Of a stretch of DNA of 26,973 bases, positions 4,042-13,721 are shown piece after piece; within the stretch, counting starts at the first letter, position 1; each line of letters opens with the position of its first letter. The stretch covers positions 1-26,973 of the forward strand of contig CAYJSX010000002.1 in assembly GCA_964372575.1 (NCBI GenBank), read 5' to 3'. The position numbers and the translations under genes were made by a program. Source of the DNA: an uncultured Planctomycetia bacterium (GTDB taxonomy: Bacteria; Omnitrophota; Gorgyraeia; 1-14-0-20-64-10). The notes below the pieces were generated by a model, which saw only the letters and a program-made list of their open reading frames with translations, ran no database searches and was not told where the DNA came from.

Positions 4042-4716
4042 CTAGCTGGTAAGATCTTTAGAGAGTTCTTTTCTCCACCGATCAAAGAAGCCCGACAACT
4101 CCTGAAAGGGAACAGGCTGAAGAAGCATCAGCAATTCTGGTGCGTCCCTTTGGAAGGTTTTGATCCTTTCAAAAGCCACCCCCAGCCAATAGAGGTCAAA
4201 ACCAGGATCCTTCTTCTTTGCCCTCTCGATCAATTCCTCGGGCCGAAAGTGCCCCCCCTGAATCAGCGCGTAGATGTCGATGAAATCCCTAAGGGTGGCT
4301 CGACCGAATAAAGCCAGAAACTTACCGGCAGCCAGGTCCTCGAGATTCTCGACCCTTAAGTTGGGGTACCCTGGAAAGACAACGGTGGATTTAAATCGAA
4401 AAGGGGCATCTTGTGCCAAGTGGATCAGGGTGGTCTCTTTTCCCTTTTGGACCGTCAGTTCGACGAACGAACGAAATCCCCTTTGGCGCTGAACCTCCAT
4501 TCCATCATCGGTTCTCAGCCTCTCCTCTAACCGGCGAGAGAACGGGTCAATGAGTTCCTCCGCCGCCGTAAAGAAATCGAGGTCGTTGCTCCTGCGGTGC
4601 TTCAGATAGAACAGGGATAGGGCAGTTCCCCCTACCAGATAGAACTGTTCGCTCTCCGGCACCTTGGGAAACCTCCGGAGGACCGTCTCTTGGGCGTCAT
4701 TAATGATCTGCAACAA
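4042..4716 (-). CDS. AbiEii-like nucleotidyltransferase toxin (copy 1)
   Basis: FYLVGGTALSLFYLKHRRSNDLDFF (GGTA..R.S.D.D motif) and C-terminal K..A...R...RDFID. Confidence 0.85.
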   Translation of the reverse strand: MLQIINDAQETVLRRFPKVPESEQFYLVGGTALSLFYLKHRRSNDLDFFTAAEELIDPFSRRLEERLRTDDGMEVQRQRGFRSFVELTVQKGKETTLIHLAQDAPFRFKSTVVFPGYPNLRVENLEDLAAGKFLALFGRATLRDFIDIYALIQGGHFRPEELIERAKKKDPGFDLYWLGVAFERIKTFQRDAPELLMLLQPVPFQELSGFFDRWRKELSKDLTS

Positions 4717-5074: not shown

Positions 5075-5112
5075 TACGCGAGGATGAGGCTCTTTAAGGC
5101 CTCGTAGACCTG
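5075..5112 (-). pseudogene. Orphan 3'-end remnant (QVYEALKSLILA*) of the GLEE-linker gene
   Basis: 5078-5112 matches 6162-6196 at 34/35 nt. No start codon; in-frame stops just upstream. Confidence 0.75.
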
Positions 5113-5172: not shown

Positions 5173-5817
5173 CTATCCCTGCATGAGCCAAGAAATCTGA
5201 CCTTCGAAGAACTCCACGAGCTGCTCGATGGCCACCGGTTTAATCATCCGAGGGAGTATTTTGACCTCGGTTATCCTCGAGAAGGCCTGAGCCAACCAAT
5301 AATTGTCCAGGCCCAGATGCTTTTCTTTCGCTCGAGGAAGAAGAACCGGTAGGGGATACAACTCCTGGTGAATAAAATACACGTCGACAAAATCCTTAGG
5401 GTCTGACCGGTCGTAAAGGGCAGACAGTTTGTTGCAGGCGATATCCAGGGCGCTGTCCATCCACAGCGCCCATTCCGGACGTTGAACCTTGGCCTCCAGA
5501 CGGTAGGGGCTGGCCAGCGCAAAGTCCATCTCAATCCTCTCTTCCTTTCGATTCACCAGGAAGCACTCCAAGAAGCTTCCCGTGGTTCGCGTGAAGGAAA
5601 CCGTGGCCTGCATCTGTTTGGCCAACTCCTGTACGACAGGCGGCACACGGGAAACGGCTTGAGGATCGTCGGTAAAGAAATCCAGATCATCCGAATACCT
5701 GTGGTGAAGGTAAAAGGCGGACAGGGCCGTGCCGCCCGTGAGATAAAAGTCGTCCCGAAGAGGAGTCTCAGCGAGTTGGGCAAGGAGTTGGCGCTGGAAA
5801 GGGGTGAGGATTTCGAT
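5173..5817 (-). CDS. AbiEii-like nucleotidyltransferase toxin (copy 2), canonical start codon absent (ATC)
   Basis: The frame of the track ORF 5173..5646 stays open upstream: (I)EILTPFQRQLLAQLAETPLRDDFYLTGGTALSAFYLHHRYSDDLDFF. No ATG/GTG/TTG lies between the in-frame TGA in the antitoxin gene and GTG 5646. Confidence 0.8.
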   Translation of the reverse strand: MEILTPFQRQLLAQLAETPLRDDFYLTGGTALSAFYLHHRYSDDLDFFTDDPQAVSRVPPVVQELAKQMQATVSFTRTTGSFLECFLVNRKEERIEMDFALASPYRLEAKVQRPEWALWMDSALDIACNKLSALYDRSDPKDFVDVYFIHQELYPLPVLLPRAKEKHLGLDNYWLAQAFSRITEVKILPRMIKPVAIEQLVEFFEGQISWLMQG

Positions 5818-6095: not shown

Positions 6096-6159
6096 AGAGA
6101 ACGCTTCTTAAAAGGACACTTCTCTCCAGAGAGAAGTGTCCCAGAGAGAAGCGGTCTCT
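6096..6159. repeat. 64-bp nested palindromic element, copy 1
   Basis: Identical to 9805-9868. Inner 13-bp perfect stem at 6114-6141; outer 13-bp arms with 1 mismatch. Overlaps the TAG of the upstream gene. Confidence 0.92.
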
Positions 6160-6700
6160 AAGCGAAGATGAGGCTCTTTAAGGCCTCGTAGACCTGATCG
6201 AGAGGTTTCCCTTGAAGCCCCAGGTAGGGCGTGGGGATGACGGGGTAGGTTGAGGCCCCAGAGGCCACCGCCTGCACGATCACCACCGGCAGGGCTCCAA
6301 GAGGAAGGGACTCGTTTGGATTGCTCTCTGGGTGACGCTTGACTTCAACAACCCGAAAGTCCTGATAAAGCTGCCGCGTTACGTCTGAGATGAAATCGAC
6401 CTGCAGGTCAATCCCTTCGGGCAATCCCAGCCTCTCCCGAAGCGCCAGCCCCAGGCCCACAAACCCTGGGCCAAAGACCTCCCCGACTCGACCCAGATCA
6501 TCCGGGTCCAGCAGTTTCTCATCAATGAGAACGGCCAAGTTGGCGGCAGAGCCCTTCGCTAGCTCGCCGTAGAAATCCCTCAAAGCTTCCATTCGGTCAT
6601 CGCCACCAATGGCGTTGGCCACCAAGCTCTCCACCTCCTCCAGGCCGGCGGGCTTGGAGGGTGCTGGCCCCTCGGTACCCGGTACCGCTGTCGCCCGCAC
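6158..6700 (-). CDS. C-terminal part (AGLEE linker plus ~158-aa terminal domain) of the frameshifted modular protein
   Basis: Begins with a Pro-rich linker and AGLEE like those in 6580..8439. The frame is open upstream to about 6827. Confidence 0.65.
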   Translation of the reverse strand: MRATAVPGTEGPAPSKPAGLEEVESLVANAIGGDDRMEALRDFYGELAKGSAANLAVLIDEKLLDPDDLGRVGEVFGPGFVGLGLALRERLGLPEGIDLQVDFISDVTRQLYQDFRVVEVKRHPESNPNESLPLGALPVVIVQAVASGASTYPVIPTPYLGLQGKPLDQVYEALKSLIFA

Positions 6701-8439
6701 CTCGGAGCGGACCAGAGGAAGAGGTAAGTGAAATCCACGAGGTGTAGTCTGATAACGTCCAGTTCTTGCCGCATGCCACGCACTGAGTTGCCCGGCTGCT
6801 GCGATTCCAAGGCAGTAACCTTTGCCCTATTCTGATTAATCATCCACAGATTCTCGAAAACCAAATCTTCTAGAACATTAAATGTGAGAACTTGTTGAAA
6901 AGCCTTCTCGCTATCTACGAATGCCTGACCTCGTTTATAAACAATGCGGTCTTCAAACTCGATACCAGAGACAAAGTTTGAGCCAGGACTGTTTCTATTG
7001 AAAGTCTCGAACTCTTCCACGCCCTCATCAAATGCTTTGATCGCTGCCTCTGGTGTCAATGCGACATTAGCCTTATGAAGCTCGGGTTGTTCTCCCCTAG
7101 TCCTGATAACAGCCCATCGCAAGGTCTGATTAGAATCAATTTCTCCTACAAACTTTTTACGCTCCTCTCCTTGTAACTTCCCACGAAGGTATTTTTGAAT
7201 TTCATCTAACCTCTTTTCCTGAGTCTCGCGGATCGTTTCCTCCAGCCCGGAGGGCTTGGGCGGGGTAGGAGTAGAACCTTGAGGAAAATCTGTAGGGGTT
7301 GCTCTAGAAATGCTGCGAAGATAAATACCTATATCGAGCCCTTCAAGCCAGATGACGGGGAAGTGTGGGAGGTTGCTAATGTCGCGAATCTTTCCCGCAT
7401 TTGTACGCGCTTCTCCCGTTATTGGATCCTTCCACGTAATCTGAATTTCTACTCCTTGCTGCATCCAACTCCTATAGGGCTCTGCTGCGCCTTGACCTAA
7501 TTCTCTCAATCCAGCTAGGTTTTTCAACGTCGAAAGGGCTGAAAGTACTGCAAGCTTGTTGTAACCAAATCCCTTTCGAGCCTCACCCTCCTTTTCCCAG
7601 TGTTCCAAGCGTTCGATAATCGGTTTAATGAAACGGATGATGTCTTGCCTGAAACGAATGGTCCCCTTCTCAACTTGGAAAACGAAGGAAGCTCTGTCGT
7701 GGTACGAATAATACTCAGGTAAAGACGTATCCAACCGAACTAAGGTTAGGGCAACCTCATAGCGAAGATCCCTTAACCCACGATGCTCTTCGGAGACCCG
7801 ATCCAAATCAATCTCGGCTGGAGGTACGTACGAGGACAAGTAGCTCCCTTCGACCATTGGCTTACCAAGTAGCCCGAGGATCGTTCTATAGGTTTCTTCC
7901 TGTTGGCCAAAGAGGAGGTCGTAATAGAGCTGCCCTTCGTCCCTCTGCTCATCAGGACGCACCCTCTGTAAGATTTCGGTATCCAGTCGCCAAAGGACAT
8001 GGATCGCTCTAGCGCGGTTCCTTTCCCCAATCTTTTCCTGGCCCACCGAATCATCGGGTAGATTTGCCGTAATCAGGGCAGCGAGGGTACGATCGAATCC
8101 TCTATCGCGTTGACGTAGGATTTCATCGACCTGAGCTTTGAAGTCGTAGCCTACCAGAGCGGGGTCTGGGAACTTCTCCTCCAGGCCGGCCCCTCGACTG
8201 GGCTCAGGGCGAACGGGTGCCAAGGGGCCAGGGGGAACAGGGGGAACAACTTGTGCAAGGCGGCCGATGGCATCGATGGCCTCATCGGGATTGCCGGAGA
8301 GGAGGGCTTCTTCCAGACCGGAGCGTTGCTTCCCTGTTTCAAGCTGGTTCTGGCGCAAGGCAAGGGCGGGGCTGGGCGCGGCGAGGCTGACGCTTAGAAA
8401 AACAGCAAGTAATCGGGGGACGATCGGGTACAGTTTCAT
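6580..8439 (-). CDS. Putative secreted modular hypothetical protein with repeated [AS]GLEE linkers (N-terminal part; probable -1 frameshift near 6700-6740)
   Basis: Signal-peptide-like MKLYPIVPRLLAVFLSVSLAAPSPALA from ATG 8439. GLEE motifs at 8308-8322, 8176-8190 and 7237-7251. No recognised family. Confidence 0.7.
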   Translation of the reverse strand: MKLYPIVPRLLAVFLSVSLAAPSPALALRQNQLETGKQRSGLEEALLSGNPDEAIDAIGRLAQVVPPVPPGPLAPVRPEPSRGAGLEEKFPDPALVGYDFKAQVDEILRQRDRGFDRTLAALITANLPDDSVGQEKIGERNRARAIHVLWRLDTEILQRVRPDEQRDEGQLYYDLLFGQQEETYRTILGLLGKPMVEGSYLSSYVPPAEIDLDRVSEEHRGLRDLRYEVALTLVRLDTSLPEYYSYHDRASFVFQVEKGTIRFRQDIIRFIKPIIERLEHWEKEGEARKGFGYNKLAVLSALSTLKNLAGLRELGQGAAEPYRSWMQQGVEIQITWKDPITGEARTNAGKIRDISNLPHFPVIWLEGLDIGIYLRSISRATPTDFPQGSTPTPPKPSGLEETIRETQEKRLDEIQKYLRGKLQGEERKKFVGEIDSNQTLRWAVIRTRGEQPELHKANVALTPEAAIKAFDEGVEEFETFNRNSPGSNFVSGIEFEDRIVYKRGQAFVDSEKAFQQVLTFNVLEDLVFENLWMINQNRAKVTALESQQPGNSVRGMRQELDVIRLHLVDFTYLFLWSAPRCGRQRYRVPRGQHPPSPPAWRRWRAWWPTPLVAMTEWKL

Positions 8440-8567: not shown

Positions 8568-8954
8568 TCACGTGGGGTACAACGAAAGGTCTGGGTAAGG
8601 GTAGTCTCTTTGGTTGTAGGTGATAAGGGTCAATCGATGCTGGAGCGCGGTGGCAGCGATCACGGCGTCCACCCACTCTCGAGGGTTTTCTCGGCGGCTG
8701 GAGGCCCGAAGCAAATCTGCCGCCAGACGGGCAATGACCGAATCTACAGAGATCGTGTCCATGGCTTCAAGGAGTATCGCCGTTTTTCGGGTTTCGGAAG
8801 GCTTTGCCCCCGCCCAAACTTCCAGGAGAGATAAGCTTGAACAGGCAAGGGGTTCTGCCGTCTGCTCGGTCAGTCGATCGAGCAAAGAAACGGTATCTTG
8901 CCGATTCCTGAGGACCCAGATCAGGACGTCGGAATCAACCAGGTATCTAGCCAT
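8568..8954 (-). CDS. vapC: PIN-domain (VapC-family) toxin
   Basis: YLVDSDVLI...SLLEVWAG...DAVIAATALQHRLTLITYN..DY acidic PIN motifs. Confidence 0.9.
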   Translation of the reverse strand: MARYLVDSDVLIWVLRNRQDTVSLLDRLTEQTAEPLACSSLSLLEVWAGAKPSETRKTAILLEAMDTISVDSVIARLAADLLRASSRRENPREWVDAVIAATALQHRLTLITYNQRDYPYPDLSLYPT

Positions 8955-9192
8955 GGCGCCTAAGGCGCGCCCGGAAACGGGCGAGGTAGCGGTTCACATC
9001 GGCTTGGGTCTTTAGGTCGGGGTGGTTCTTGTCTGTCCACCCCCCGGCAGCCTCATGGAGCGCCCGCTGGAATTTAAGGGCATGCAACCTGGTCTGGACC
9101 GCCAGGGCAATGAAGTGACTGCGCTTGCGGCTGGGTACAACTTCTTTGAGCTCCCTGGCCAGGTCGTCTGGCAGAACGATTTGGGTCTTCAT
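8947..9192 (-). CDS. VapB-type antitoxin (ribbon-helix-helix-like N-terminus)
   Basis: 81 aa, overlaps the vapC start; MKTQIVLPDDLARELKE..RSHFIALAV; strong SD GGAGGAG. Confidence 0.75.
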   Translation of the reverse strand: MKTQIVLPDDLARELKEVVPSRKRSHFIALAVQTRLHALKFQRALHEAAGGWTDKNHPDLKTQADVNRYLARFRARLRRHG

Positions 9193-9375: not shown

Positions 9376-10677
9376 GTGAACGCTGAGATTGTGGCGGTAG
9401 GGACTGAGCTGCTGCTGGGCTTCGTGACCAACAGCGACACGGTTTACCTGTCCCGGGTGCTGGCCGGGCTGGGGATTGATTGCTTCCACCATGTGACGGT
9501 TGGGGACAACCAGCAGCGGCTGGGCCAGGCGCTGAAAACAGCCCTGGGGCGGGCCGACCTCGTCATCACCTGCGGCGGCTTGGGCCCCACGGTGGATGAC
9601 ATCACCCTGGAGACGATCGCCTCGGTCACTGGCCGTCCCCTTGGGCTCAATCGCAAGCTCCTTCGGCAGGTCCAGGCCCGCTTCAGCCGCCAGGGAATCC
9701 GGATGCCCAGGTCCAACATCCGCCAGGCGACGATCCCCAAGGGAGCCGTCGTCTTCCCCAACTCGGTCGGCACCGCGCCGGGGTTCCTACTCACCCTTCA
9801 TAAGAGAGAACGCTTCTTAAAAGGACACTTCTCTCCAGAGAGAAGTGTCCCAGAGAGAAGCGGTCTCTTGGTTTGTCTGCCGGGGCCGCCGGCTGAGCTG
9901 ATCCCGATGGTGGAGCGGTACCTCATCCCCCGCTTGAGGCGCTGCGCTGGCAAGACGGTGATCAGCTCCAGGACTCTCAAGGTCACCGGCCTGACCGAAT
10001 CCGAGGTGGACGTTAAGGTCCTGGACATTCTGGCCTTAAAAGGGAAGGCCACCGTTGGCATCTACGCCCATCCAGGCCAGATTGACTTGAGGATCACGGC
10101 CAAGGCCCCTTCCCTGGCGTCCGCCCAACGGTTGATCGGTCGGGTGGAGGCCAAGATCCGGCAGCGGCTTAAGACGCTGATCTTTGGGGCCGATGGGGAG
10201 ACGCTGGAGGGGGTGGTGGGCCGCCTATTAAGGAAGAAGGGCCTGACGCTGGCGGCGGCTGAATCGTGCACAGGGGGGCTGATCCAGCACCGGATCACAG
10301 AGGTGCCGGGCTCTTCCGATTACTTTCGTGGAGGGGTGGTGGCCTACGCCAATGAGCTGAAAGCTCACGGCCTGGGGGTCTCGCCCGCCCTGCTGGCGCG
10401 ATTTGGGGCGGTGAGCGGCCCGGTGGCTCGGGCCATGGCCGAAGGCATTCGAAGGCTGGCGCAATCTGACCTGGGACTTTCGGTCACCGGCATCGCCGGA
10501 CCGACCGGCGGCACCAAGAAAAAGCCGGTGGGGTTGGTTTACATAGCGCTGGCTACGCCGAAGCAAACGAAGGGATATCGCTTTCGATTCACTGGAGACC
10601 GCTCCACCATCAAGTTCAAGGCCTCGCAGGCGGCGTTGGATCTGATGAGGAACTACCTTGAAGGGGTGCCAGGATAA
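9376..10677 (+). CDS. cinA: Competence/damage-inducible protein CinA (MoCF-biosynthesis-like plus PncC/NMN deamidase domains)
   Basis: AEIVAVGTELLLG, TVGDN, GGLGPTVDDIT, LPGPP, AAESCTGGLI, TGIAGPTGG. GTG 9376 follows AGGAGG. Confidence 0.93.
   Translation: MNAEIVAVGTELLLGFVTNSDTVYLSRVLAGLGIDCFHHVTVGDNQQRLGQALKTALGRADLVITCGGLGPTVDDITLETIASVTGRPLGLNRKLLRQVQARFSRQGIRMPRSNIRQATIPKGAVVFPNSVGTAPGFLLTLHKRERFLKGHFSPERSVPERSGLLVCLPGPPAELIPMVERYLIPRLRRCAGKTVISSRTLKVTGLTESEVDVKVLDILALKGKATVGIYAHPGQIDLRITAKAPSLASAQRLIGRVEAKIRQRLKTLIFGADGETLEGVVGRLLRKKGLTLAAAESCTGGLIQHRITEVPGSSDYFRGGVVAYANELKAHGLGVSPALLARFGAVSGPVARAMAEGIRRLAQSDLGLSVTGIAGPTGGTKKKPVGLVYIALATPKQTKGYRFRFTGDRSTIKFKASQAALDLMRNYLEGVPG
9805..9868. 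repeat. 64-bp nested palindromic element, copy 2, in frame inside cinA
   Basis: Identical to 6096-6159; encodes RERFLKGHFSPERSVPERSGL. Confidence 0.92.
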
Positions 10678-11332: not shown

Positions 11333-11379
11333 CGTGGTCAGCGAGGTCGTGAGTGAAGTAGTGTGAGCAAGAGTGTCCC
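11321..11379. repeat. GGGACACTCT..AGAGTGTCCC inverted repeat spanning the thpR stop and next start
   Basis: Perfect 10-bp arms at 11321-11330 and 11370-11379, same GGACAC/GTGTCC core as the 64-bp element, followed by T5. Confidence 0.65.
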
Positions 11380-13721
11380 TTTTTAGAGCGTCCCCATTTC
11401 TGGCAGTCGTTTCTCTGGAGCTTCTGCTGGCTGGGTTTCTGGCCGCGAGCCACCGGATGATCGCGGGCCACGACGGCTTTCATTACTTCGCCCTGCAGTA
11501 TTACTTCATGAACGGTGCGGCCGCATCCGGGGAAATCCCCCAGTGGATCCCCTTCATGGCGCAGGGGATGCCTGCCACCTGGTGGTACGCCATCCAAGCG
11601 GCCCCCTGGCAGGCAGCCCTGCTTCAGGCGGCCGGCCTCTTTAAAGGGCTCGACCTTCTTCCTCTTTTCTACGCTGGGATCTTCTGGGATACTCTGCTCC
11701 TTCTCACCGGAACCTGGCTGCTGGCGAGACTCCTCTTTTCCTCCCGGTGGACCGCCTTCTTCGTGACGGTCACCGTGGCAGGCTCCGCCATCTGGACGAG
11801 CCAGCCGTGGTTTAATTTCCATTCCACCTATGCCCTGCCCCTGGCCCTCTACCTGGGGCACCGCTTCTTGGAAACCGGCCGATGGAGGTACCTCCTGATC
11901 TCTGGCAACCTCCTTGCCCTGCAGACCCTGGGGAATCTTCCTTACTTCTTATCGGTCGCCAGTCTGGCCTTTTTCCTCTATTTCCTCTTCTACGCCCTCT
12001 TCAACCTGAAGGAGGTAGGACCTCAGCTTAAGAAGATCCGATGGGGCTGGCCATCAACGGCAACGTTCCTTTTGATCGGCGCCTCATTCCTCGCCGTTTT
12101 TCTTCTGTTGAGAACGGATGTCGATCAAACGCTCCAGTACAACATCGGAAGAAACCCGGATGGAACCACCCCCTTTGATCTCTTCTTGAGTTATGGCTCA
12201 AGCCAGCAAGCGGCCAAGTGGATCGAGCTTCTCCTTCGGGCACCGCTGGCCTTGGACTACACGCTGTACGTGGGCCTGCTGACACTTCCTCTTATCTTTC
12301 TGTTTCCCCTCTCTGCCTCACGGCGGAAGGCCCTGCCCCTGGCGGCTTGCGCCCTCTTCTTTCTCTTCTTCTCGCAGGGCAGCCTTGTCCTGGCCAGAAT
12401 CGGTTACGATCTTTGGCCCTTCATGAAGTTTTACCGCCATCTGGGCCTAACCGCCTGTTGGGCAAAGCTTTTCTTAGCTCTTTTGGCTGGGGCAGGATTT
12501 GAGGTCCTCTTTGTTGAGCGGACGAGAAGGGCCCTGCCGCTTGGGTTGGGGTTGGCGCTGGGGAGTCTGGCGCTTGCCCTCTTTATTCTTGCCCGGAATG
12601 AAGCCCTCTGGGCGGAGCTTATCCCAAGAATCTTTTCTGGGCAGGAGTGGCAAGCCTTCGCCCCCATCTTACAAGGAGATCGGCTCGCCAGCCTCATTCA
12701 AGGGTCTGGCTGGATCTCCCTCTTGGCCGCCCTGGTCGTGACCGGCGCCTGGCTTGGCCGGGGGACGCGATCTCTCTGGATCGCGTTGGCCCTGACCCTG
12801 CAGGTAGCCGATCTTTACGGCTACAAGCTTGCAGATGCCCTCTTAAAAACCGTCCCCTTGACCGGAACGGAGAGGCAGCTCACCCAACTCCAAGAGGTCC
12901 CTTTCGCCCAAAGGCGGCTTCCCCTCGAAGGAAACAAAACCCAAAGGGTTCAGGACTTCGTACGGCTGCCCCCTTTTAGGACGATCGTTGGGATCGTGAA
13001 CCTCTTTCTCTTTGCGGATGAGCCGGGCAGCAGCTTTCGGATCGACTACTGGCAGCGCCCGCTGGATCAGCTCATGCGGGCCTACTGGGGGCAACCGATC
13101 CACGACCGCTCCGTCAAGCCAGCGGGTCTCATCCCATGGCGGGGATTGGATTTCCCTTTAAGGCATCCGGCCGCCGCCAAGGTGGCCGGGGTGACGGAGG
13201 ACAAGATCCGGTTCTTTTCTGACGCCCACGGGATCGAGACCGAAGAGGAGATGGCCCGTCTCATGACCGACGGGGGCTACGCGGGCGACCTCCTCTTGAT
13301 TTTGCCAAGAGAAGGCAGGGTGCCAGGTTTAAAACCTGGCACCCCCCAGCCGTTATCAACCGACGAGCGCCTTGGGCTTGGCCTTGAGGTGACTCGCTTT
13401 GACTCCAACCACCTAGAGTTCTTCGTGACGGTGCCAGGCACCGAACCGGCCTGGGCCTTTTACAGCGATGTCTGGCATCCCAACTGGAGGGCAGCGGTGA
13501 ACGGTAAGCTGGTGCCAGTCTTCAGGGCCAACCTGGCCTACAAGGCCGTCCCGCTGGAAGCCGGCGAAAACAGGGTTCATTTCTTCTTTGAGTCGAAGCG
13601 GCTGACTTGGGCTTATCGGTTCTTTGGAGCCAACGCCCTTGTTTGGGTGGTGGGGGTACTTGGTTTGGCCGGCCGGCTTATCTGGGCAGGAAGCCCCGCC
13701 AATAAAGAAGCCAAAAGCTGA
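11373..13721 (+). CDS. Polytopic membrane protein, YfhO-like (putative GT-C glycosyltransferase)
   Basis: Many TM segments; C-terminal YSDVWHPNWRAAVNGK..VFRAN.AYKAVPLEAGENRVHF typical of YfhO-type proteins. Start uncertain. Confidence 0.65.
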   Translation: MSLFRASPFLAVVSLELLLAGFLAASHRMIAGHDGFHYFALQYYFMNGAAASGEIPQWIPFMAQGMPATWWYAIQAAPWQAALLQAAGLFKGLDLLPLFYAGIFWDTLLLLTGTWLLARLLFSSRWTAFFVTVTVAGSAIWTSQPWFNFHSTYALPLALYLGHRFLETGRWRYLLISGNLLALQTLGNLPYFLSVASLAFFLYFLFYALFNLKEVGPQLKKIRWGWPSTATFLLIGASFLAVFLLLRTDVDQTLQYNIGRNPDGTTPFDLFLSYGSSQQAAKWIELLLRAPLALDYTLYVGLLTLPLIFLFPLSASRRKALPLAACALFFLFFSQGSLVLARIGYDLWPFMKFYRHLGLTACWAKLFLALLAGAGFEVLFVERTRRALPLGLGLALGSLALALFILARNEALWAELIPRIFSGQEWQAFAPILQGDRLASLIQGSGWISLLAALVVTGAWLGRGTRSLWIALALTLQVADLYGYKLADALLKTVPLTGTERQLTQLQEVPFAQRRLPLEGNKTQRVQDFVRLPPFRTIVGIVNLFLFADEPGSSFRIDYWQRPLDQLMRAYWGQPIHDRSVKPAGLIPWRGLDFPLRHPAAAKVAGVTEDKIRFFSDAHGIETEEEMARLMTDGGYAGDLLLILPREGRVPGLKPGTPQPLSTDERLGLGLEVTRFDSNHLEFFVTVPGTEPAWAFYSDVWHPNWRAAVNGKLVPVFRANLAYKAVPLEAGENRVHFFFESKRLTWAYRFFGANALVWVVGVLGLAGRLIWAGSPANKEAKS
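13318..13344. repeat. GGGTGCCAGG-tttaaaa-CCTGGCACCC palindrome, in frame in the YfhO-like gene
   Basis: Perfect 10-bp arms; 27 bp; encodes RVPGLKPGTP. Confidence 0.85.
13429..13443. repeat. Short CGGTGCC-a-GGCACCG palindrome (VPGT)
   Basis: Same 13-bp core GGTGCCAGGCACC as 23349-23361. Confidence 0.55.

Follow-up and report, generated by a model that had tools for sequence, protein, structure and literature searches.

The question raised by the locus described here is why one short peptide, Gly-Leu-Glu-Glu (GLEE), recurs between otherwise unrelated segments of an exported bacterial protein, and what might read it. The locus lies on the minus strand of a 26,973-nucleotide stretch of DNA (named "the window"; positions 1 to 26,973 of contig CAYJSX010000002.1, assembly GCA_964372575.1), deposited as an uncultured Planctomycetia bacterium and placed by GTDB in the Omnitrophota. 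Members of this phylum are widespread, uncultured and very small, and are thought to attack other microbes by means of very long exported proteins. A first-pass annotation, made from the letters alone, had taken positions 6158-8439 as a single gene for a polyprotein of effector modules that may be cut at GLEE. In the current work the locus is assigned, with high confidence, to a lineage-specific family of Sec-exported, cysteine-poor modular proteins found in one GTDB family of the Omnitrophota, of which it represents a frame-broken, mosaic member. The plan of this family consists of a leader, a chain of unrelated modules each starting with [A/S/T]-G-L-E-E behind a Pro-rich spacer, and a C-terminal alpha/beta domain of ~150 aa. 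The family is unpublished and is defined here; full-text literature searches for the GLEE motif retrieved nothing relevant and no published description.

The window is contig 2 of a 1.5-Mb Omnitrophota metagenome-assembled genome (MAG; here G000) of 225 contigs, with 60% GC, a completeness of 80.7% and a RecA that has its nearest counterparts in Candidatus Omnitrophota MAGs, and genome-wide motif counts were obtained from a crude gene set of 1,276 open reading frames (ORFs). In this set GLEE is observed 182 times against 20.5 expected from composition, which ranks it first of all tetrapeptides by count as well as by enrichment, with GLEK, GLED, GLDE and GLQE being at expectation in the same genes and GQEE likewise showing no excess (7 observed versus 7.2 expected). 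The motif acts at the protein level, being frame-specific (182 occurrences in frame, with no more than 5-20 in any one of the five alternative frames of these genes) and written in 49 DNA spellings, with Gly and Glu codons near genome usage. An internal Shine-Dalgarno or pausing role of GGAGG as the main cause was discarded, since the motif is frame-specific and 36% of its copies do not contain GGAGG. The motif logo reads [A/S/T]-G-L-E-E with unconserved flanks, and Pro accounts for 10.9% of residues upstream of the motif versus 6.1% downstream. The motifs are concentrated, 155 of the 182 falling in 46 proteins that total 54,254 residues (11% of coded residues), at a density of 1.3 per 1,000 aa in proteins of 1,000-2,000 aa versus 0.18 in proteins shorter than 600 aa; GLEE proteins contain 0.17% Cys versus 0.99% in other proteins. 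An all-against-all BLAST of the 46 proteins returned 16 high-scoring segment pairs only, too few to map module edges, and because these proteins have next to no other similarity in common the motif was not inherited with paralogous flanks. The test proposed by the first-pass annotation, namely whether GLEE is enriched in other signal-peptide-bearing or very large proteins of this proteome, thus returned a huge excess.

At the locus itself, an ORF listing and a six-frame scan resolve the minus strand into two ORFs in different frames. ORF-A spans 8487-6580 (-) and encodes 635 aa from a TTG codon, or 619 aa from the ATG at 8439, whereas ORF-B spans 6700-6158 (-) and encodes 180 aa from a GTG codon, its frame being open over 6826-6161. 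The six-frame scan of the whole window finds GLEE four times, every copy at this locus and at the positions first reported, with motifs 1-3 (8308-8322, 8176-8190 and 7237-7251) in the ORF-A frame and motif 4 (6635-6649) together with the terminal domain in the ORF-B frame, so that the reading as a single gene does not hold. Translated from the ATG at 8439, ORF-A opens with a signal-peptide-like sequence (MKLYPIVPRLLAVFLSVSLAAPSPALA/LRQ), and the Pro-rich spacers in front of motifs 2-4 and the first segments of 44 and 313 residues are likewise borne out. From 5' to 3' along the minus strand, the features are the following.

8359..8439 (-): signal peptide of ORF-A (MKLYPIVPRLLAVFLSVSLAAPSPALA, followed by LRQ), a leader of the family type 'xPxPA[LFY]A-LR', recognised by translation and by the leader hidden Markov model (HMM)
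8176..8358 (-): conserved mature N-terminal module with motifs 1 and 2 (LRQ-x10-SGLEE-ALLSGNPDEA..LAQ, Pro-rich spacer, AGLEE)
7252..8175 (-): module 2, 308 aa, with a GC content at third codon positions (GC3) of 0.51, delimited by protein search and composition
7303-7467 (-): small beta-rich domain (W..G..I.W...G.I....P.IWLEG..IYL) at the end of module 2, shared with proteins P0002, P0005 and P0019
7237..7251 (-): motif 3, (KP)SGLEE, behind the spacer TPTDFPQGSTPTPP, from translation and six-frame scan
6784..7236 (-): module 3, a mobile domain of ~150 aa (..EERxxFVxEL..N..LR...PGSxYxxGIE...ENxW..N), GC3 0.44, beginning at motif 3
6700..6760, likeliest 6700-6735 (-): frame-break zone between the ORF-A and ORF-B frames, coinciding with a jump from low to high GC
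6580..6699 (-): W/R-rich ORF-A tail (..PRCGRQRYRVPRGQHPPSPPAWRRWRAWW..), out of frame and closed by a TGA at 6580-6582
6635..6649 (-): motif 4, (KP)AGLEE, in the ORF-B frame, behind the Pro-rich spacer ..AVPGTEGPAPSKP, from the six-frame scan
6161..6634 (-): C-terminal alpha/beta domain (..YRVVEVKRHPES..LP..ALPVVIVQAV..TYPV..PY.GL.G..L..V...LKSLIFA) in the ORF-B frame, with its stop codon at 6158-6160

Neither ORF-A nor ORF-B has a match in Pfam or NCBIfam (E <= 0.1 to 1), in keeping with the earlier remark that no named family could be recognised.

Membership of the family is apparent from the leader followed by [AST]GLEE, from at least two motifs that stand at module starts behind Pro-rich spacers, and from a chain poor in cysteine, with no Cys in residues 1-580 of ORF-A or in the C-terminal domain. 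A leader HMM seeded with the first 115 residues of ORF-A retrieves 16 ORFs of the genome, the best match being to residues 1-44 of ORF-A, and these leaders share a hydrophobic core, the sequence xPxPA[LFY]A-LR ("ALALR"), 5-12 further residues and then [AST]GLEE-AL..G. At least two GLEE are carried by 14 of these 16 ORFs versus 32 of the 1,260 other ORFs (p 8e-20), and most of the other multi-GLEE ORFs with a complete 5' end have a signal-like start of another sort. Residues ~5-110 of ORF-A are its only part with matches in relatives, in 16 of the 19 genomes of the same family. Beyond the family, where 16/19 genomes have it, the leader is found in one of two genomes from the sister family and in none of 19 other families. 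The mature N-terminal module is matched in proteins P0011, P0013, P0015, P0017 and P0018, and its GC3 of 0.64 is native-like.

In G000, as in 13 of the 19 relatives from its family, the C-terminal domain is the very last part of many ORFs (124-3,420 codons), which upholds the first-pass suggestion of a shared terminal domain; in a separate comparison it occurs in 4/4 family genomes versus 0/116 genomes of about 50 other families. The copy in the window aligns over its full length with that of G004, a genome of another genus (34% identity, E 7e-17), shares 35% identity with paralogue C23 and matches the family model at E 2e-22. In most subfamilies G[LM]EE occupies three or four fixed columns of the domain, and no other columns are as well conserved across genera; in the subfamily of the window GLEE positions 2-4 are often degenerate, and at this locus they read GLGL, NPNE and GLQG. 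Each of the seven full-length relatives retrieved has a signal peptide and 4-9 G[LM]EE, the leader being canonical in most of them and the C-terminal domain recognisable in six. When the DNA pattern of the motif was counted against a reversed control, most of the family was enriched (92 versus 2 in G000, 124 versus 7 in G001), as was one of two sister-family genomes (23 versus 5), and 19 other families of the class were at control level, these genomes being kin and their counts therefore not independent of one another.

The two halves of the locus are separated by a frame break. The distance between motifs 3 and 4 (7248-6646 = 602 nt) is not divisible by 3, which means that the segment earlier taken as '~200 aa' crosses from one frame into another, and joining the frames requires a net -1 shift (equivalent, modulo 3, to a 1-nt deletion or a 2-nt insertion). 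Independently assembled contigs are available from three public runs (two studies), and they cover 6613-7268 without gap or mismatch; one of the runs may be the source of the MAG. The module 3 HMM, built from 13 homologues, matches the ORF-A frame as far as nt 6784 (E 1e-41), with its continuation in the ORF-B frame at ~6793 not being significant (E 1.9); codon-usage log-odds favour the ORF-A frame to about 6710-6735 and the ORF-B frame beyond; and the first Cys of the ORF-A frame lies at ~6699 and the sole Cys of the ORF-B frame at ~6814. Taken together, the HMM match, the switch in codon usage and these Cys positions in a Cys-poor family place the break near 6700-6735. A single ORF of 848-3,420 codons encodes both signal peptide and C-terminal end in 7/7 of the full-length relatives retrieved, whereas here the C-terminal domain is intact but lies in the other frame. 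The break is a fixed indel or an out-of-frame joint, and it was overlooked in the first-pass annotation together with the compositionally foreign middle of the gene.

It is highly improbable that the break is no defect, that is, that a programmed -1 frameshift fuses ORF-A and ORF-B or that ORF-B is translated separately from the GTG at 6700. Such an arrangement would agree with two frames that are both open over a 250-nt overlap, with an ORF-B domain that is intact and matches its homologues at full length, and with the identical sequence in the three runs from two studies. Yet the overlap zone (6690-6845) contains no X_XXY_YYZ slippery heptamer, the mark of a gene with programmed -1 frameshifting, and no homopolymer of at least 4; the GTG at 6700 overlaps its only Shine-Dalgarno-like GAGG with zero spacing; ORF-B has no signal peptide of its own; and signal peptide and C-terminal end share one ORF in all seven relatives mentioned above.

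Excision of a 14-nt palindrome, CGGTACCGGGTACC (6673-6687 region), was also considered as the origin of the break and is not favoured, because codon usage favours the ORF-B frame already upstream of it, at 6708-6690. This palindrome, CGGTACC-G-GGTACCG at 6673-6687, encodes ..AVPGT.. in the last linker, and by-hand removal of its 14 nt would join the ORF-A frame to ..EGPAPSKPAGLEE, in register with motif 4.

The frame break coincides with one edge of a block of low GC. Along the gene GC3 is 0.64 in the leader, 0.51 in module 2, 0.44 in module 3 and 0.66 in the last linker and C-terminal domain, and genes of this genome have a GC3 of 0.70 +/- 0.10, with 0.2-1.3% of 300-codon windows falling under 0.45-0.50. 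Modules 2 and 3 are compositionally foreign, and the block that they form has its 5' edge just after motif 2 and its 3' edge at the frame break. A cassette consisting of modules 2-3 may thus have come from a lower-GC donor and been slotted between a native leader and a native C-terminal domain, its 3' joint to the native linker being out of frame. As sequenced, the gene would then specify a 619-aa exported protein devoid of the C-terminal domain, or would be a young pseudogene. The locus would accordingly illustrate that foreign modules can slot between native GLEE linkers.

An exhaustive search of 1.84 billion representative proteins gave 21 hits only. Module 3 (residues ~400-555) is shared by 13 proteins, 208-1,544 aa long, in which its place varies, and its alignments begin at query residues 390-414, motif 3 being at residue 398. 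The homologues thus show modules in differing architectures, and not the fixed single-family architecture which the first-pass annotation had named as the outcome that would speak against its modular reading.

A predicted structure was used to locate the motifs of the terminal domain. From a 28-sequence family alignment, AlphaFold2 (AF2) produced a model with a predicted local distance difference test (pLDDT) score of 92.6 and a predicted template modelling (pTM) score of 0.82, in which an alpha/beta domain, with four of five short strands in a beta-alpha pattern, sits between long N- and C-terminal helices; the domain of the window itself, with 10 sequences, gave a pLDDT of 59.5, too weak for use. 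On the model, the four motif sites, placed by hand from the sequence, would differ in their surroundings: one would begin a helix, one would end a helix ahead of a strand, one would lie in the turn from a strand to a helix, and one would be halfway along the last helix. Five identical residues in four predicted structural contexts suggest recognition of the sequence itself rather than a local structural role. Foldseek against PDB and an ESM-Atlas shape search found no match to the model at E <= 1e-3 and TM scores of 0.46 at most, with generic flavodoxin- or SIS-like alpha/beta folds being the only ones returned. Pfam on ten other C-terminal domains of the family gave chance-level matches only, and among curated sorting-signal models (C-terminal domain of the type IX secretion system (T9SS CTD), PEP-CTERM, LPXTG etc.), those of NCBIfam and Pfam have no match to ORF-B.

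A second indication of how the motif is read comes from its variation between genomes. The DNA pattern for GMEE is rare beside that of GLEE in G000 (7 vs 92) and in G001 (3 vs 124), but exceeds it genome-wide in both species of genus g6, G006 and G018 (52 vs 31 and 46 vs 28), and equals or nearly equals it in G014 and G005; in this comparison only the CTG codon was counted for Leu, which has other codons, and the genomes are kin. Were the motif to co-evolve with a single trans-acting reader, a genome-wide shift from Leu to Met in many unrelated proteins would be expected, and such a shift would be the signature of a shared reader. Together with the retention of GLEE inside the folded C-terminal domain, the GMEE of the sister genus points to a shared trans-acting reader. 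GLEE would then be a short linear motif that works at the level of the protein and is read in trans by a partner peculiar to the lineage, and it would act as a recognition or docking signal (for sorting, or for multi-point anchoring of long exported proteins) that is shown singly in linkers and four-fold on the C-terminal domain. Throughout the family, motif 1 lies about 13 residues past the predicted signal-peptidase site. Docking is preferred because of this position so close to the mature N-terminus and because three to four further copies are predicted to lie inside a compact fold; a motif that forms part of a folded domain speaks against a mere cut site. A trans-acting reader with docking, rather than an obligatory cleavage site, is the reading that we favour, although our confidence in it is evenly balanced.

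Several observations weigh against this reading. No reader protein, receptor or enzyme was found; the linker copies stand behind Pro-rich and probably flexible spacers, as would be the case for a protease site, so that the linker data fit cleavage and non-cleaving docking alike; and cleavage of long Omnitrophota proteins is already suspected (bioRxiv 10.1101/2023.11.21.568195). A predicted model underlies the structural placement of the motifs, 12-codon statistics the exact position of the frame break, and related genomes the lineage counts. At the DNA or RNA level there is some bias that a model confined to the protein leaves unexplained: the Leu of GLEE is CTG in 61% of cases versus 33% genome-wide, and 117/182 motifs contain GGAGG versus about 34% expected from codon usage by our own calculation.

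Marks of another kind occur in similar proteins of other lineages. Protein P0002 (1,544 aa, with a signal peptide, encoded at L140:2549-7183 on a metagenome contig of 41% GC) has six copies of 'KAT..[RK][RK]FD(x)D(x)GP' placed between its modules, of which two are homologous to modules of the window gene, and after the beta domain it has, twice, 'KAT..[RK]KFD' where the window gene has KPSGLEE. The back-translated pattern of KATGGRKFD has no match in 301 genomes of the phylum and so does not place the lineage of P0002. Protein P0005, from the unrelated genome G322 (a 2.2-Mb MAG, with 47% GC over the 26.5-kb locus fetched), has eight 'G[AST]R[ML][AS]' motifs, and three more giant ORFs of that genome, two of them with the leader of P0005, contain 12, 4 and 3 copies, a parallel to GLEE; the DNA pattern of this motif was counted 17 times versus 0 for its control. 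The four giant ORFs comprise 5,195, 2,568, 1,930 and 1,426 codons (12, 8, 4 and 3 copies); three have complete N-termini, and one leader is common to the three. The giant-ORF loci of G322 are L142:10001-17707, L144 (G322:C2:366000-385000) and L145 (G322:C2:86000-105000). The KAT..[RK]KFD of P0002 and the G[AST]R[LM][AS] of G322 indicate that other lineages have their own punctuation. We tentatively propose, as a scheme that may well not hold in full, a 'punctuation code' in which GLEE, GAR[LM][AS] and KAT..[RK]KFD are each read by the lineage's own trans-acting docking receptor or protease, with a mark at each module start and several on the end domain, imported modules, such as those of the window gene, being re-punctuated with the mark of the host. 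If true, this code would provide the first concrete sites for the sorting, anchoring or cutting of long Omnitrophota proteins.

Among the alternatives to docking, the one that survives best is the polyprotein of the first-pass annotation, in which GLEE is a lineage-specific protease site, the exported chain is cut at its linkers into separate effectors or enzymes, and protease and motif evolve together; we consider it possible, if rather unlikely. The motifs do open modules and follow Pro-rich spacers, the alignments of module 3 set in at motif 3 or beside it, and modules occur elsewhere as small stand-alone proteins (P0006 of 249 aa, P0009 of 208 aa). Junction motifs peculiar to other lineages at equivalent places are what co-evolution of protease and site would lead one to expect, the shift to GMEE in genus g6 is also compatible with it, and all three motif types start with a small residue and Gly ([AST]G-LEE, [SA]G-ARMA, ATGG-RKFD). 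The literature, too, suspects cleavage, without sites. Against these points, a cut at motif 1 would free a peptide of only ~13 residues, cutting at the three to four motifs that are predicted within helices and turns of a compact folded domain would destroy that domain, and no cleavage product has been observed. A candidate enzyme was sought in the C39-like peptidase domains present in long ORFs of G000, G001 and G322, but no such domain was found in G008, a GLEE-bearing genome of 96% completeness, and one is present in G022, which belongs to a family without GLEE enrichment. Since its distribution does not track the motif, C39 was dropped as the reader. In G000 the Peptidase_C39-like domain (E 1e-9) lies at G000:C81:4005-4271 (L147), within an ORF of 1,658 codons; the corresponding domains of G001, G022 and G322 are likewise in long ORFs.

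Less probable still is an origin at the DNA level, in which the 12-mer that encodes GLEE (GGSCTGGAGGAG) serves as a microhomology junction for swaps of module cassettes and the peptide is a tolerated by-product in linkers. The CTG bias noted above would fit, as would the fact that two spellings make up 78/182 motifs, that the 5' edge of the foreign low-GC cassette is right behind motif 2 and that modules have been shuffled between architectures. However, the 49 spellings, the absence of GGAGG from 36% of motifs and the strict frame specificity (182 versus 5-20) are difficult to reconcile with a DNA signal. Position -1 is [AST] and never Pro, even though the codons for A, S(TCN), T and P all have C as second base; beyond the five codons no nucleotide or residue is conserved in this genome; neither the frame break nor the 3' edge of the cassette is at motif 4, both being 50-100 nt upstream of it; and in the C-terminal domain the motifs are kept across genera at 30-40% identity.

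The notion that [ST]-G-L-E-E is no more than a preferred way of starting a helix (capping box) or a di-Glu turn that binds cations, with no trans-acting reader, is very unlikely. In its favour, Ser/Thr at -1 combined with Glu at +3 fits the capping-box rule, the C-terminal domain is predicted to have its motifs 1 and 3 at helix N-termini, and E, K and V are enriched downstream. But in the same model the five residues also appear in the middle of one helix and at the C-terminal end of another, the most frequent residue at -1 is Ala (78/173), which makes a poor N-cap, the nine-fold proteome-wide excess is limited to one exported class in one bacterial family, and one genus has shifted from Leu to Met genome-wide.

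The docking reading, and the family on which it rests, can be set beside several known systems. In MARTX toxins an internal cysteine protease domain releases effector modules, and the GLEE proteins resemble them in being single exported chains of unrelated modules with short recurrent sites between them; they differ in that Pfam and NCBIfam detect no cysteine protease domain and no RTX (repeats-in-toxin) repeats in either ORF, in using a Sec signal peptide and not type I secretion, and in that GLEE also occurs inside a folded domain and is spread over 46 proteins instead of one toxin. Polymorphic toxins carry demarcation motifs (VENN in CdiA, PxxxxDPxGL in Rhs), one per protein and with an adjacent immunity gene. 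There, too, a short peptide marks the exchange point of cassettes, and the mosaic composition of the window gene fits cassette import, whereas GLEE proteins have 2-9 motifs, a conserved C-terminus and no evident immunity-like partner, the gene being followed here by an AbiEii cassette that is bounded by a duplication of the gene's end. The P97/P102 adhesins of Mycoplasma hyopneumoniae undergo endoproteolysis at S/T-X-F|X-D/E sites in disordered regions; these are likewise large surface proteins of a reduced-genome bacterium, and one protease reads the short motif that they share in their flexible regions, but that motif is looser and defined by proteomics, GLEE being much stricter and more frequent. 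The T9SS CTD is a beta-sandwich of about 80 aa, and resembles the domain described here as a conserved extreme C-terminal domain on otherwise unrelated signal-peptide-bearing proteins of one lineage; the GLEE-family domain differs in being a three-layer alpha/beta domain of ~150 aa with no Pfam, NCBIfam or significant structural match.

The nearest comparison is with the giant proteins of the Omnitrophota ('Archaeovorins', dockerin-type), which belong to the same phylum and combine long chains of heterogeneous modules with export signals, and of which some, like some long ORFs of this genome, contain C39-like peptidase domains. The protein of the window differs in being small (619 + 162 aa) and frame-broken, and the GLEE family is set apart by its [AST]GLEE punctuation, its ALALR leader and its alpha/beta C-terminal domain. 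The preprints on these giants (bioRxiv 10.1101/2023.11.21.568195 and bioRxiv 10.64898/2026.06.07.730766) name no junction motif, leader or shared C-terminal domain, and the cleavage points are stated to be unknown in the former (West-Roberts et al. 2023). The family therefore offers a strict five-residue mark that includes the commonest tetrapeptide of the proteome and is concentrated in exported modular proteins with a leader and an end domain of their own, and [A/S/T]-G-L-E-E is a testable candidate for the site at which long proteins are recognised, docked or cut.

Around the gene, the window contains further elements. Two AbiEii nucleotidyltransferase ORFs lie downstream (4042-4716 and 5173-5646), and a PIN (VapC-like) ORF and its small partner lie directly upstream (8568-8954 and 8947-9192, the small partner being the upstream one of the two). 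A 38-nt direct repeat (5075-5112 and 6159-6196, 95% identical) duplicates the last codons and the stop codon of the gene and brackets about 1.05 kb with an AbiEii-like toxin fragment (5173-5646); the bracketed segment looks like a small cassette inserted at the 3' end of the gene, and the locus, with toxin-antitoxin genes on both sides, looks like a hot spot for mobile cassettes. The HtrA gene (1227-2786, Trypsin_2 and two PDZ domains) was set aside as evidence of processing, as it had been by the first-pass annotation, since recA and the two AbiEii cassettes lie in between; binding of hydrophobic C-terminal tails (..LFA, ..GAA) by its PDZ domains is only an idea. On the plus strand, 11373-13721 (+) encodes a 782-aa ORF with no Pfam match at E <= 1e-5 and no GLEE.

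Just past the stop codon of the gene, at 6096-6159, is a hairpin repeat with 31-nt arms, which is multi-copy and not specific to this gene. Its 45-nt core (AGGACACTTCTCTCCAGAGAGAAGTGTCCC..) has nine copies in the genome, located at 6096-6159 and 9822-9866 of the window and on G000 contigs C14, C38, C49, C88 and C154, and in the public runs the copy behind the stop codon has a depth of 368 versus about 10. An identical copy lies within the cinA ORF, where the MoCF_biosynth match extends over 185 residues for 143 profile positions, as if the repeat had been inserted in frame.

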